Positions 55,938-60,609 of a DNA stretch of 64,000 nt are shown piece after piece. This DNA is from Pseudomonadota bacterium (GTDB taxonomy: Bacteria > Pseudomonadota > Gammaproteobacteria > Burkholderiales > Burkholderiaceae). The notes under the pieces were generated by a model. That model did no database searches and had not been told where the DNA came from. It worked only from the letters and a program-made list of their open reading frames with translations. The position numbers and the translations under genes were made by a program. Position 1 is the stretch's first letter. Every line of letters begins with the position of its first letter. The stretch lies in NCBI GenBank assembly GCA_039804685.1, contig JBDLVQ010000021.1:20923-84922 (forward strand). The letters run 5' to 3'.

Positions 55938-56765
55938 TCAAATTAAATTGAGCTCTTTAGCAATTGTTAGAGTTGGCTCTGCTTGATTTAGGCTATAGAA
56001 ATGCAATCCAGGGGCTCCAGCCAACATCAACTGATCGCATAAATCAGTTACTACGTCCAAACCAAATGCTTTGATAGATGCTGTGTCATCACCAAAAGAT
56101 TGAAGTCTTAAGCGAATCCATCGTGGAATTTCAGCGCCACAAGCATCAGAGAACCGTAACAATTGGGTGCTATTTGTAATAGGCATGATGCCCGGGACAA
56201 TTGGTTCATCAACTCCTAACTTAGCCGCCTCATCTACAAACTTAAAATAGGCATCGCTATTGAAAAAATACTGGGTTATTGCTGAATCTGCCCCAGCTTT
56301 CATTTTGTTGGCGAAGCGTTGCACATCATCAGTCATTGATTTTGCTTGTGGATGCATTTCTGGATAAGCTGCCACTTCAATATGAAAATGACTATCTGTC
56401 TCAGATCGAATGAATCGAACCAATTCATCAGCATGATGAAATTCACCGTACTGGCCCATTCCTGATGGCAAATCACCTCTTAATGCAACAATCCGTTGAA
56501 TACCCAGCGCTTTGTATTGCGCTAACAATTCACTGATTTTTTCCTTTGAGCTACCCACACAGGATAGATGGGGCGCAGCTTGCTGACCAGCCTCATGTAT
56601 TTCTTTAACAGCAGAAAAAGTGCCATCTTGGGTTGATCCACCTGCTCCAAAAGTAACAGAGAAAAATGTTGGCTTGAGCGCTGTTGCAAGTTGCTCACGC
56701 ACGGTGCGCAACTTAGCAGCTCCTTCCGGTGTTTTTGACGGGAAAAACTCAACGCTCAATTCCAT
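55938..56765 (-). CDS. metF: Methylenetetrahydrofolate reductase
   Basis: SVEFFP, SVTFGAGGS, ALRGD, AAYPE, ITQYFF, GLHFY. Confidence 0.97.
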   Translation of the reverse strand: MELSVEFFPSKTPEGAAKLRTVREQLATALKPTFFSVTFGAGGSTQDGTFSAVKEIHEAGQQAAPHLSCVGSSKEKISELLAQYKALGIQRIVALRGDLPSGMGQYGEFHHADELVRFIRSETDSHFHIEVAAYPEMHPQAKSMTDDVQRFANKMKAGADSAITQYFFNSDAYFKFVDEAAKLGVDEPIVPGIMPITNSTQLLRFSDACGAEIPRWIRLRLQSFGDDTASIKAFGLDVVTDLCDQLMLAGAPGLHFYSLNQAEPTLTIAKELNLI

Positions 56766-56794: not shown

Positions 56795-58234
56795 TTAATA
56801 ACGATATGTTTCAGGCTTGTAAGGGCCTTCTTTTTTCACGTTAATGTAATTGGCTTGTTGATCGCTTAGCTCTGTCAACTGTGCGTTCAATTTTTTCAAT
56901 TGCAAACGTGCAACTTTTTCATCCAAATGCTTAGGCAATGTGTAAACGCCAACTGGGTACTTATTGGTATCAGCGGTGGTCCACAACTCGATCTGTGCAA
57001 TTGTTTGATTCGCGAATGAAGAGCTCATCACATAAGATGGGTGCCCCGTACCACAACCCAAATTCACTAAGCGACCTTTTGCCAAAATGATGATGCGCTT
57101 TTCAGCCTGACCATTGCTAGCCGGGAAAATAACGTGATCAACTTGCGGCTTAATTTCTTCCCATTTGTACTTTTCAACACCTGCAATATCAATCTCATTG
57201 TCAAAGTGCCCGATATTACAAACAATCGCCTGATCTTTCATCTTAACCATGTGATCATGAGTAATCACATGGTAGTTACCGGTTGCCGTAACAAAAATAT
57301 CTGCTTTGTCAGCAGCGTAGTCCATTGTTACAACCCGATAACCTTCCATAGCTGCCTGTAACGCACAAATTGGATCAACTTCAGTCACCCAAACCTGTGC
57401 AGATAAAGCGCGTAGAGCTTGAGCAGAACCCTTACCTACATCGCCGTAACCTGCAACAACTGCCACTTTGCCTGCAACCATGACATCTGTTGCGCGCTTG
57501 ATACCATCAACCAATGATTCGCGGCAACCGTACAAATTATCAAACTTGCTCTTGGTAACTGAGTCATTAACGTTAATCGCTGGGAATTTCAACTCACCCT
57601 TAGCATGCATTTGATATAAGCGATGAACGCCAGTTGTTGTCTCTTCTGTAACGCCCTTAACTTTTTCTAAGCGTACTGAATACCATGTTGGATCAACTTT
57701 TAGTTTTGATTTGATGGATGCAAAAAGAACTGTTTCTTCTTCGCTAGTTGGGTGATTCAAAACCGATAAATCTTTTTCAGCCTTTGTTCCCAAATGTAGC
57801 AACATCGTTGCATCACCACCGTCATCCAAAATCATGTTCGAGAAGCCGCCATCTTGCCATTCGAAAATGCGATGAGTGAATTCCCAATATTGCTCCAAGG
57901 TCTCACCCTTGATTGCAAACACAGGCGTGCCATTTGCTGCAATCGCTGCAGCTGCATGGTCTTGTGTTGAGAAAATATTGCATGAAGCCCAGCGGACTTC
58001 TGCACCAAGCGCCTCTAATGTTTCAATCAATACCGCAGTTTGAATAGTCATGTGCAAAGAACCCGTAATACGTGCACCGCGTAATGGTTGGCTTGCAGCA
58101 AACTCTTCGCGAATTGCCATCAAACCTGGCATTTCTGTTTCAGCAATAGCAATTTCTTTGCGTCCCCAAGCTGCTAATGAAATATCAGCAATAGCGCAAT
58201 CTTTAAGAATATCTAAATCATTTGGTTTGTTCAT
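56795..58234 (-). CDS. ahcY: Adenosylhomocysteinase
   Basis: [39 protein letters not shown]. Confidence 0.98.
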
Positions 58235-58270
58235 TACCACTCCAAGCTAGTAAGGAAGATCTTGGAGAGC

Positions 58271-58313
58271 AAATAAAAAGCTCGCCAACCAATTCACTTC
58301 CAGGTTAGCGAGC
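58271..58313 (-). terminator. Terminator forming the SAH riboswitch expression platform
   Basis: 11 bp stem GCTCGCTAACC/GGTTGGCGAGC followed by TTTTTATTT. Confidence 0.8.
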
Positions 58314-58390
58314 GTCGTTGCTAAAGGCTGTAAAGCCCCCTCTAAGCCTAGGGTGTCAGAACTTCGACACCTCGCAACGCTCCTTAGAGA
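58310..58390 (-). ncRNA. SAH riboswitch
   Basis: TCTAAGGAGCGTTGCGA...CTAGGCTTAGA...AACGACGCTC; P1 TCTAAG/CTTAGA, P2 GGTGTC/GACACC, pseudoknot GAGCG/CGCTC; upstream of ahcY. Confidence 0.92.
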
Positions 58391-58400
58391 TTTCGAAAAA

Positions 58401-59567
58401 TTATAAACCAGCAGCGGCTCTTAATGCTGCGGCCTTATCTCTTGCTTCCCATGTGAACTCCGGCTCTTCACGGCCAAAGTGTCCATAAGCAGCAGTTTTA
58501 CGATAAATTGGGCGAAGAAGATTTAACATCTTTACTATGCCCTTTGGCCTTAAATCAAAGTGAGTGCGCACTAACTCAGCAATCTTCTCATCCGAAACCT
58601 TGCCTGTGCCAAACGTACTGACCATCACTGATGTTGGCTGAGCAACACCAATCGCATATGAAATTTGGACCAAACACTTGCTTGCCAAACCCGCCGCCAC
58701 AATATTTTTAGCGACATAACGACCCGCATAAGCAGCTGAGCGGTCAACCTTTGAAGGATCCTTACCAGAGAAGGCACCACCGCCGTGAGGGGCTGCACCA
58801 CCGTAGGTGTCCACAATAATTTTGCGACCAGTTAAACCACAATCTCCCTGTGGGCCACCAATAACAAAGCGACCTGTTGGGTTCACCAAGTACTTAATTT
58901 CACCTTTGATTAACTCTTTAGGCAAAACCGGTTTGATAATTTCTTCAATCACAGCTTCGCGTAGTTTTTCTAAAGAAATATCTGGTGAGTGCTGTGTTGA
59001 TAAAACGATTGTGTCGATTGAATCAGGCTTGCCATCTACATAACGTAAAGTTACTTGTGATTTCGCATCTGGGCGCAACCAGTTCAAGCGGCCATCACGA
59101 CGCAAGTCAGCTTGACGCTCGACCAAACGATGTGACAAATGAATCGGTAAAGGCATTAATTCTGGAGTCTCATCAACAGCGTAACCAAACATCAAGCCTT
59201 GATCGCCAGCGCCTTGATCTAGGCCATCATCATGGGCTTTATCAACGCCTTGAGCGATATCAGGGCTTTGCTTGTCATAAGCCACTAAAACAGCGCAACC
59301 CTTGTAATCAATACCATATTCAGTATTGTCGTAACCAATTTGACGAATAGTGTCACGGGCTACGTTGATGTAATCAACGTTAGCTGTTGTTGTAATTTCA
59401 CCGGCAAGCACTACCAAACCTGTATTGCACAGAGTTTCTGCGGCAACACGTGCTGTAGGGTCTTGAGCCAAAATGGCGTCAAGAATCGCATCAGAAATTT
59501 GGTCAGATACTTTGTCTGGGTGACCTTCAGAAACAGACTCTGAAGTAAAGAAGTAGTTGTTAGACAT
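58401..59567 (-). CDS. metK: S-adenosylmethionine synthetase
   Basis: [33 protein letters not shown]. Confidence 0.98.
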
Positions 59568-59623
59568 TTGAAGCTCCTTAGTTAAATAACCGACAACACG
59601 TGCCGAGTATTACCAAGTGCGGC

Positions 59624-59678
59624 GACGCTTTAGCGGATAGTTTTAATTCGCCCCGCAAGTTGTCTTAACTCGGCGAAT
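59624..59678 (-). ncRNA. SAM-II-like riboswitch aptamer (variant)
   Basis: ATTCGCC-GAGTTAA-GAC-AAC-TTGC-GG-GGCGAAT-TAAAACTATCC-GCTAAA-GC-GTC: 7 bp P1, TTGC/GCTAA core, GAC/GTC P2a, TAAA in L3. Confidence 0.75.
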
Positions 59679-59685
59679 ACCCTAA

Positions 59686-59715
59686 ATTCTATAACATTCT
59701 CACTTTTAGTGGCAA
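59686..59715 (-). promoter_or_regulatory. Sigma70 promoter of metK
   Basis: TTGCCA-N18-TAGAAT, placing the start site just before the aptamer. Confidence 0.65.
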
Positions 59716-59733
59716 ACCTGTATATTTACCCCT

Positions 59734-60609
59734 ATGACAAGTACAAGATTACGCTTTACCAAAATGCATGGCGCCGGCAATGATTTCATTGTTTTAGATG
59801 GCATTTCTCAAGATCTTTCAAAGATCACTAAAGAGCAATGGCAAGCTTTGGCTCACCGTCAATTTGGCATTGGCGCAGATCAGATTTTATTAGTTGAAAA
59901 ACCGACTGAAGCAGATGCTGAATTCCGCTACAGAATCTTCAACTCTGACGGTGGCGAAGTTGAACAATGCGGCAATGGCTCACGCTGCTTTGTTAGATTT
60001 GTCAGAGAAAAAGGTTTAACCAAGAATAAAACCGTCAAAGTTCAAGTGGCCCATACCATCCTCGCTCTCACCGAGAATGATGACGGAGAGGTAACTGTGA
60101 ATATGGGGGCACCCATTTTGTCGACTGAATTAGTGCCGTTCAATTCCCTAGGGCTTGAAAACAAACCTGATGGTAGCTCATTGATTTACGAACTCAAACT
60201 TGCCGAAGATTCTGCATGGGTTGGGACAGTGTCCATGGGTAATCCACACGCCGTTCAAATAGTTGCAGATGTTGAAACCGCACCCGTTGAAATCCAGGGG
60301 CCGCAAATTGAAAAACATTCAGCATTTCCTAAAAAGGTGAATGCGGGATTTATGCAAATTCAAAATCGCCATGAAATTAAATTACGTGTCTTTGAAAGAG
60401 GTTCAGGAGAAACTCTCGCCTGCGGCACAGGCGCATGTGCGGCTGTAGTTTCTGGAATCCTAAGAGGTCACCTTGACTCACCGGTGAAAGTGCATACCCG
60501 TGGCGGTGACCTCAGCATTGCTTGGAATAACAAAGCCTCCGTAGACTCGCCCGTTATGATGACGGGCCCCGCACAGACAGTATTTGAGGGTGAAGTTACC
60601 CTAGATTAA
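59734..60609 (+). CDS. dapF: Diaminopimelate epimerase
   Basis: [36 protein letters not shown]. Confidence 0.97.

Follow-up and report, generated by a model that had tools for sequence, protein, structure and literature searches.

A predicted metK-dedicated SAM-II-type riboswitch with G at position 10 in Betaproteobacteria

What does a SAM-II-like aptamer sense when position 10 of its first loop is G in place of U, and how could it reach a Shine-Dalgarno (SD) sequence that lies outside its pseudoknot? The leader of metK in the 64,000-nt stretch of DNA analysed here (the window) raises both questions, and a first-pass annotation had proposed a distinct SAM-II subclass with shifted affinity or ligand and a strand-exchange expression platform. 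The probable answer from our analysis is a riboswitch that falls structurally within SAM-II and senses SAM, the ligand that we infer; it would belong to a subtype mainly dedicated to metK in Betaproteobacteria and act as a translational OFF switch.

The metK leader and its aptamer fold

The leader lies on the minus strand within the 166-nt spacer between dapF and metK, the start codon of which is at 59567; the genus is Polynucleobacter, and the metK of the host shares 92% identity with its counterpart in Polynucleobacter sp. 78F-HAINBA. A TAGAAT or TAAAAT box is present in relatives of the genus too, at an equal distance from P1, and transcription is expected to start a few nucleotides 5' of P1. 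The features of the locus and of the aptamer are as follows.

59734–60609, plus strand: dapF, the neighbour across the spacer.
59686–59715, minus strand: promoter-like site with TTGCCA (59715–59710), an 18-nt spacer and TAGAAT (59691–59686), 10 of 12 matches in a consensus scan.
59672–59677, minus strand: P1 5' strand UUCGCC, pairing with 59647–59652.
59665–59671, minus strand: L1 third strand GAGUUAA, placed by the RF00521 alignment and invariant in the genus.
59655–59664, minus strand: GACAACUUGC, made up of the P2a 5' strand GAC, AA, and the P2b 5' strand C19-U20-U21-G22-C23; P2a covaries.
59647–59652, minus strand: P1 3' strand GGCGAA, pairing with UUCGCC.
59635–59646, minus strand: A-rich L3, UUAAAACUAUCC, read off the sequence.
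59624–59634, minus strand: GCUAAAGCGUC, that is G42, C43, U44, A45, A46, A47 and G48, then C, then the P2a 3' strand GUC; invariant in alignment A1, with its pairing counted.
59574–59579, minus strand: SD sequence AAGGAG, 6 nt 5' of the AUG.
58401–59567, minus strand: metK, S-adenosylmethionine synthetase of 388 aa, the gene under control, with Pfam S-AdoMet_synt N, M and C domains (E 1e-42 to 1e-70).

Right behind the promoter-like site and 5' of metK, positions 59620–59680 (minus strand) fold as a SAM-II H-type pseudoknot. In this structure P1 forms a hairpin, and its loop pairs through the 3' half (GAC..CUUGC) with the 3' tail GCUAAAG.GUC (GCUAAAG at 59634–59628 and GUC at 59626–59624, minus strand); the L1 strand GAGUUAA would occupy the major groove of P2b. 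The L3 strand of SAM-II sits in the minor groove of P1; in the relatives of the window element L3 is variable in length and is the place of hairpin insertions. In SAM-II the sulfonium is contacted by O4 of U11 and U21, the adenine is Hoogsteen-paired to U44, the amino-acid end of SAM is touched by A47, and G22-C43 and C23-G42 are paired. The ligand-site nucleotides U20, U21, G22, C23, G42, C43, U44, A45, A46 and A47 are all present in the window, as are all SAM-touching nucleotides of the metX and SAM-V structures, and neither CUUGC nor GCUAAAG varies in alignment A1, where both keep the register of the RF00521 model. The register was taken from the RF00521 alignment and agrees with the published numbering (PMC3764141, PMC3303485). 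The first-pass annotation had placed all SAM-II elements in register with the metX aptamer, and its coordinates check out on the minus strand, with each element placed by the RF00521 alignment; its reading of L1 as GAGUUAA is likewise correct, with G at 59669, the position of U10 in metX, while U11 and U12 are retained.

The reference for SAM-II is the family RF00521 (SAM_alpha) and the metX aptamer structure 2QWY of Gilbert et al. 2008, as cited in PMC3303485 and PMC3764141. The metK element resembles it in its H-type pseudoknot with P1, the L1 triplex strand, P2a/P2b and an A-rich L3, in the identity of the core nucleotides G8, A9, U11, U12, U20, U21, G22, C23, G42, C43, U44 and A45–A47, and in its position before methionine or SAM genes (metK here; metK, metZ, metH and metX in relatives). 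It differs in carrying G for U10, in a short, near-invariant P2a (GAC:GUC) with an AA/C internal loop, in scoring 11.7 bits against a cut-off of 36, in controlling metK, and in an SD that lies 45 nt downstream and would be reached through a strand-exchange relay, not within P2a. SAM-V (RF01826; metY structure, Huang and Lilley 2018, PMC6061858) has the same binding-site architecture, acts on translation, and has an equivalent third-strand U8 bonded to the adenine-pairing U47 (PMC6061858), whereas its SD lies inside a 2-bp P2a, it has a P3, its lineage is marine Alphaproteobacteria and Bacteroidetes, and the metK element has no match to RF01826 and a remote SD, 45 nt past P2a. The SAM/SAH riboswitch (RF01727), found before metK in Rhodobacterales, is likewise a small, metK-dedicated H-type pseudoknot with translational control, but its sequence core is unrelated, the metK element has no RF01727 match at E ≤ 10, and the SAM/SAH class fails to tell SAM and SAH apart, whereas the metK element keeps the sulfonium-reading U11/U21 pair.

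With Rfam at gathering thresholds, the sole match reported was a canonical SAH riboswitch before ahcY (RF01057, 54 bits, 58303–58391, minus strand), which begins about 10 nt past the metK stop codon and precedes ahcY (56795–58240) and metF (55938–56765). Since this riboswitch, ahcY and metF follow right after metK, the genes of the activated methyl cycle stand in one row, in which a predicted SAM-type OFF switch before metK is followed by a SAH ON switch before ahcY-metF.

Detection, conservation and covariation

The first-pass annotation had proposed a search with models for SAM-II and for SAM-V. RF00521 gave an end-to-end match at 59610–59687 under relaxed thresholds, with 11.7 bits and an E value of 3.8 in 321 nt, which does not reach the gathering threshold of 36 bits, and SAM-V (RF01826), SAM-II long-loop and SAM/SAH (RF01727) gave no match at E ≤ 10 within 59480–59800. 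By itself the RF00521 match is weak evidence and not significant; the conservation of the sequence nonetheless indicates an element far beyond chance, because in a DNA search of 60 relatives its 57-nt core (59676–59620) was kept, at 84–93% identity, by all but one of the 36 other genomes of the genus (35 of 36), with flanks that could not be aligned. The same core was found in four other families, always just 5' of metK and again between unalignable flanks. That G10 could be a sequencing error, a concern raised at the outset, is refuted by the presence of the core in those 35 genomes. Other, weak RF00521 matches in the own genome (best 21.8 bits), which fall within coding sequence, look like chance.

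A covariance model built from 15 sequences with P1 alone as structure (R1) had matches in 315 of 401 genomes sampled evenly from the GTDB order Burkholderiales (equivalent to Betaproteobacteria), often with 2–5 copies per genome. Directly before metK the aptamer was seen in Paraburkholderia, Cupriavidus, Caballeronia, Herbaspirillum, Variovorax, Hydrogenophaga, Castellaniella and Thiobacillus. Among the 15 sequences, 97.6% of cells were paired and three P1 pairs had both sides changed; for the full pseudoknot in 118 distinct matches, 94.7% of cells were paired, compared with 28–46% in slid controls, and both-sided changes occurred in seven pairs (five of the six in P1 and two in P2a). The covariation score of these 118 sequences was 0.204, versus 0.060 when shuffled, and none of 500 shuffles reached 0.204. 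As P2 was absent from the R1 search model, its support is unbiased, and P2a appears as GAC:GUC, GUC:GAC, CAAC:GUUG, GAAC:GUUC, GAGC:GUUC and CAC:GUG. Within the genus neither P2b nor the platform helices vary, so that their support comes from conservation and not from covariation. The alignment of metK leaders that had been suggested for detecting conservation and covariation of G10 returned the former (93 of 100) together with covariation in P1 and P2a, and none with position 10.

Several individual loci deserve mention. In the genus Polynucleobacter, including the own genome, R1 finds one copy per genome, the metK one, and terminator-type SAM-II elements before metX or metZ seem to be absent, while many other families carry 2–5 copies. 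One Polynucleobacter leader (L032, genome G029) has a 10-nt tandem duplication, GUUAAGACAA, in L1/P2a of the metK aptamer (GAGUUAAGACAAGUUAAGACAACUUGC), which lengthens the loop and does not destroy the core. In a reduced genome of 1.2 Mb from the same family (L273, genome G338), the metK aptamer carries CAAAUUGC and GCUAAAUCG, a compensatory change of C19:G48 to A:U, and a long L3 insertion. Three records of metagenome-assembled genomes labelled Bosea thiooxidans, Asaia bogorensis and Candidatus Intricatilinea (L189, L199 and L207) contain a metK 76–80% identical to that of the window with a comamonad-type metK leader, and their contigs probably represent betaproteobacterial DNA that was mis-binned or wrongly labelled.

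Position 10 and the two subtypes

In solved structures, U10 (U8 in SAM-V) donates its N3-H to O4 of the adenine-pairing U44 or U47, and it is a second-shell contact to U44 that does not touch SAM directly (PMC3303485, PMC6061858); U10 to U12 were completely conserved in a survey of the Rfam seed (PMC3764141). In the window U11 and U12 are kept and 59669 is G, so L1 departs from this U10-U11-U12 signature. Two subtypes could be told apart among 180 unique betaproteobacterial elements, and position 10 was distributed between them as listed here.

Type A, before metZ, metH or other genes, or first of a tandem pair: L1 GAUUUGA, then CAGCUUGC, a variable P2a and a terminator.
Type B, the form of the window: L1 GA[G/U]UUAA, then GACAACUUGC and GCUAAAGCGUCGCC, without a terminator.
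Position 10 in type A, the terminator type (n = 43): U in 40, G in 3.
Position 10 in type B before metK (100 unique): G in 93, U in 6, C in 1.
Position 10 in type B before an ORF of about 100 aa termed 'MYDC' (17 unique): G in 5, U in 12.

One metK leader from Corticimicrobacter, outside this tally, has A at position 10, and a phylum-wide sample gave only U10 outside Burkholderiales, with no G10 there. Position 10 is thus a natural G/U polymorphism, with the G-form standing before metK across most Betaproteobacteria: both forms occur before metK, metZ and the MYDC ORF, and they swap between orthologous metK leaders. The view of G10 as a conserved, subclass-like signature was borne out, since G is kept in 93% of the unique betaproteobacterial metK leaders and is therefore clearly under selection there, hence not neutral; as all partner genes belong to SAM or methionine metabolism, G10 is no marker of another gene set. 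Failure of the Rfam model is not due to G10 alone, because U10 relatives of type B (L071, L073) and most type-A elements fail as well; one SAM-II match in 17 loci passed the RF00521 threshold (36.9 bits).

Type A corresponds to what Leyn et al. 2014 called the betaproteobacterial 'metXZ element' (PMC4239095); according to McCown et al. 2017 that element is a canonical SAM-II (PMC5473149). It shares its lineage and the aptamer core CUUGC ... GCUAAAGCG with the metK form, and it is matched by R1 in the same genomes, often in tandem with a metK-like type B; its differences are the L1 GAUUUGA (U10 in 40 of 43), CAGCUUGC, a variable P2a, an intrinsic terminator, and control of metX, metZ and metH. 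For metK of beta-proteobacteria, Leyn et al. reported that no regulator was found, and SAM_alpha turned up by Rfam in two alphaproteobacterial orders only, Rhizobiales and Rhodobacterales (PMC4239095). Terminator-linked SAM-II aptamers were noted in beta-proteobacteria in 2007, and tandem SAM-II pairs, the first with a terminator and the second of the ribosome-binding-site (RBS) type, in 2022.

Elsewhere in the Betaproteobacteria, tandem SAM-II elements are present in L053, L057, L071, L073 and some 25 further loci, in the order type A with terminator, type B with RBS platform, and an ORF of about 100 aa starting with MYDC or MFDC. These ORFs had no Pfam match; in the four loci checked, the product of the gene that follows starts, as judged by eye, like a MATE-family efflux transporter, and the MYDC loci look like an uncharacterised SAM-controlled cassette. 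Type B also stands before a MoxR-like AAA ATPase in L094 (Pfam AAA_5 match) and, by resemblance to the eye, in L135 and L061, the last of which has a SAM-I/IV aptamer (RF01725, 44.5 bits) near the SAM-II element on the strand of its type-B match.

That G10 marks a distinct subclass with shifted ligand specificity (SAH or SAM/SAH, MTA or methionine), as in other riboswitch variant classes, was the first-pass reading, and it draws on real features: G10 is conserved and gene-specific (93 of 100 metK leaders versus 3 of 43 terminator-type elements), U10, reported as invariant among the Rfam seed sequences, props up U44, the base that binds the adenine (PMC3303485, PMC3764141), metK of Rhodobacterales is under a SAM/SAH riboswitch without discrimination (PMC4239095), and a variant of a SAM aptamer with a new ligand has a precedent (PMC10853860). 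However, the direct SAM contacts are unchanged, including the sulfonium-reading U11/U21 carbonyl pair; orthologous metK leaders have U, C or A in some lineages; G10 also occurs before metZ and the MYDC ORF; a comparison of G10 and U10 forms across the aptamer detected no partner position covarying with position 10 and no compensating change elsewhere; and ahcY, in the same operon, is already preceded by a SAH riboswitch of its own. Because the SAM contacts are kept, G10 and U10 alternate in orthologous leaders and before the same genes, and nothing covaries, a changed ligand, as the first-pass reading had it, appears unlikely from the sequences.

The metK-leader element is instead most likely, as judged from sequence comparison, a SAM sensor whose second-shell G may tune the response. 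The N1-H or N2-H of G10 could replace the N3-H of U as donor to O4 of U44, and in the empty aptamer a G10-U44 wobble might compete with SAM and thereby raise the threshold at which metK responds, which would suit a gene that is to be shut off only when SAM is plentiful. A bolder form, which we regard as tentative and rather doubtful, is that G10 defines a metK subclass with a functionally different pocket, through a wobble with U44 when empty or a re-shaped adenine layer, so that the SAM threshold would be markedly higher, or the discrimination between SAM and SAH relaxed, relative to the U10 methionine-synthesis aptamers of the same cell; if it were true, a single nucleotide would set the hierarchy between making methionine and making SAM.

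The expression platform and the meaning of the subtype

The SD sequence AAGGAG (59579–59574) is indeed remote, as first described, lying 45 nt past the last aptamer pair, and the three downstream complements of the aptamer that had been listed, ACUCGGC (59608–59602), GUUGUC (59597–59592) and UUAACU (59585–59580), are present as stated. The strands between aptamer and SD are the following.

59620–59628, minus strand: GCGUCGCCG, 5' strand of an alternative hairpin, H2, pairing with GGCACGU in the RNAalifold consensus of 25 genus leaders.
59608–59619, minus strand: CACUUGGUAAUA, putative anti-SD strand, the H2 loop in the proposed ON state, pairing with 59576–59589 in the minimum-free-energy (MFE) fold with the aptamer blocked.
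59602–59608, minus strand: ACUCGGC, complement of GCCGAGU, in 4 of 13 genus leaders.
59598–59605, minus strand: CGGCACGU, 3' strand of H2, the GGCA of which also pairs with UGUC in the hairpin of the proposed OFF state.
59592–59597, minus strand: GUUGUC, found in all 13 genus leaders, complement of GACAAC (ON) and, in the hairpin of the OFF state, of GGCA.
59580–59585, minus strand: UUAACU, complement of AGUUAA in L1, abutting the SD; 12 of the 13 genus leaders have a complement to L1.

RNAalifold of the 25 genus leaders returned P1 together with H2 (GCGU-C-GCCG : (N)GGC-ACGU). The helix GCGUCGCCG:CGGCACGU is present in all 13 non-redundant genus leaders, and its 5' strand, likewise in 13 of 13, shares GCGUC with the pseudoknot. 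GUUGUC is also found in 13 of 13 (0.9 expected by shuffling; not enriched in other families), and a complement of L1 lies beside the SD in 12 of 13 (4.3 by shuffling). Order-wide, the 22 nt after the aptamer are complementary to the ribosome-binding region, with a mean of −19.7 kcal/mol, a mean z of −2.75, and z below −1.64 in 72% of 92 leaders; the anti-SD duplex of the window is modest (−13.7 kcal/mol, z −1.6, reached by 36 of 500 shuffles). The partner of the aptamer 3' strand GCGUCGCC, GGC[A/U]ACG[C/U], occurs in 55 of 100 metK leaders versus about 5 by shuffling. The strand-exchange platform of the first-pass annotation was therefore upheld in part, namely for GACAAC:GUUGUC and the L1 complement; its ACUCGGC helix was not, and it had missed both the conserved H2 helix and the anti-SD strand after the aptamer. 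The ACUCGGC helix was rejected as a conserved switch element, given that it occurs in 4 of 13 genus leaders, is unenriched elsewhere, and overlaps, and so excludes, the 3' strand of H2.

These elements suggest a four-strand exchange between GACAAC (A), GCGUCGCCG (B), CGGCACGU (B') and GUUGUC (A'). Without SAM, conservation and folding suggest that A would pair with A' and B with B', and the anti-SD CACUUGGUAAUA would be held in the loop of the H2 hairpin, leaving the SD free (ON). With SAM, the pseudoknot would capture both aptamer strands (A:B), GGCA would pair with UGUC (B':A'), and the anti-SD would pair with UAUU..ACUAAGG, hiding the SD and shutting off metK translation (OFF). Blocking the aptamer as a proxy for the SAM-bound state made the anti-SD pair with the SD and GGCA with UGUC, and in most of the genus the anti-SD also paired with the AUG (GCCGUUG:CAAUGGC, UUCCU:AGGAA). 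When H2 was enforced, the best folds of L014, L015 and L021 added GACAAC:GUUGUC and the L1 pairing, whereas those of the window and L030 did not. The unconstrained MFE fold of most genus leaders is the sequestered, OFF-like one, and the ON fold is 8–11 kcal/mol less stable, so kinetic, co-transcriptional control is needed: with energies favouring OFF, the ON fold would be set during transcription.

Could G10 be kept for the platform instead of the pocket, by pairing with C of a downstream complement (ACUCGGC or UUAACU) in a ligand-free fold? The free-state MFE of the window does pair GCCGAGU with ACUCGGC, its 5' segment is unusually complementary to the platform (z −3.4), and the L1 complement lies beside the SD in 12 of 13 genus leaders. 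Outside the genus, however, where G10 is conserved, complements to the aptamer 5' half are not enriched (GCCGAGU 9 of 87 versus 8.7 shuffled; AGUUAA 8 of 87 versus 13.6), the z score of the 5' segment is about −1 to +1.5 in most leaders, and ACUCGGC has an internal mismatch in the close relative L012 and excludes the conserved H2 3' strand. Because G10 is conserved order-wide and the L1 complements are not, platform pairing cannot explain G10, and we regard this reading as quite unlikely. Highly improbable is a leader that is no metabolite sensor, serving as some other conserved structure (for instance to bind a protein or an sRNA, or to stabilise the mRNA) or mainly as a transcription terminator, since, although a terminator-like hairpin with a U-rich run was flagged at 59606–59590 and in L014 and L175 a strong hairpin precedes a run of seven or eight U, the exact SAM-II binding core is kept over the whole bacterial class before SAM and methionine genes, the hairpin of the window is weak, and the post-aptamer strand is complementary to the RBS order-wide.

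A pure terminator was also considered for the window as a candidate and rejected, the hairpin (−4.8 kcal/mol) being too weak and the U tract poor (UUAUUUAACU); in a few relatives, such as L014 and L175, the extended GGCA/UGUC hairpin and its U run form a true terminator.

Collectively, the element is a metK-dedicated betaproteobacterial SAM-II subtype with a U10G signature and a proposed relay-type translational platform, and on present evidence no new ligand class. Neither Rfam, as a family, nor the open-access literature searched, as a description, contained a G10 or metK-linked SAM-II form in beta-proteobacteria. It fills a reported gap, as in most Betaproteobacteria, among them Comamonadaceae, Cupriavidus and relatives of Burkholderia, metK is preceded by a SAM-II-type aptamer beyond the reach of the Rfam model, and a covariance model seeded with metK-leader sequences would recover hundreds of such elements for annotation. 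The two forms also amount to a natural experiment, in which a ligand-site position regarded as invariant carries G in front of one gene but U in front of others within the same genomes, and the comparison of G10 with U10 would reveal how a second-shell contact tunes a riboswitch.
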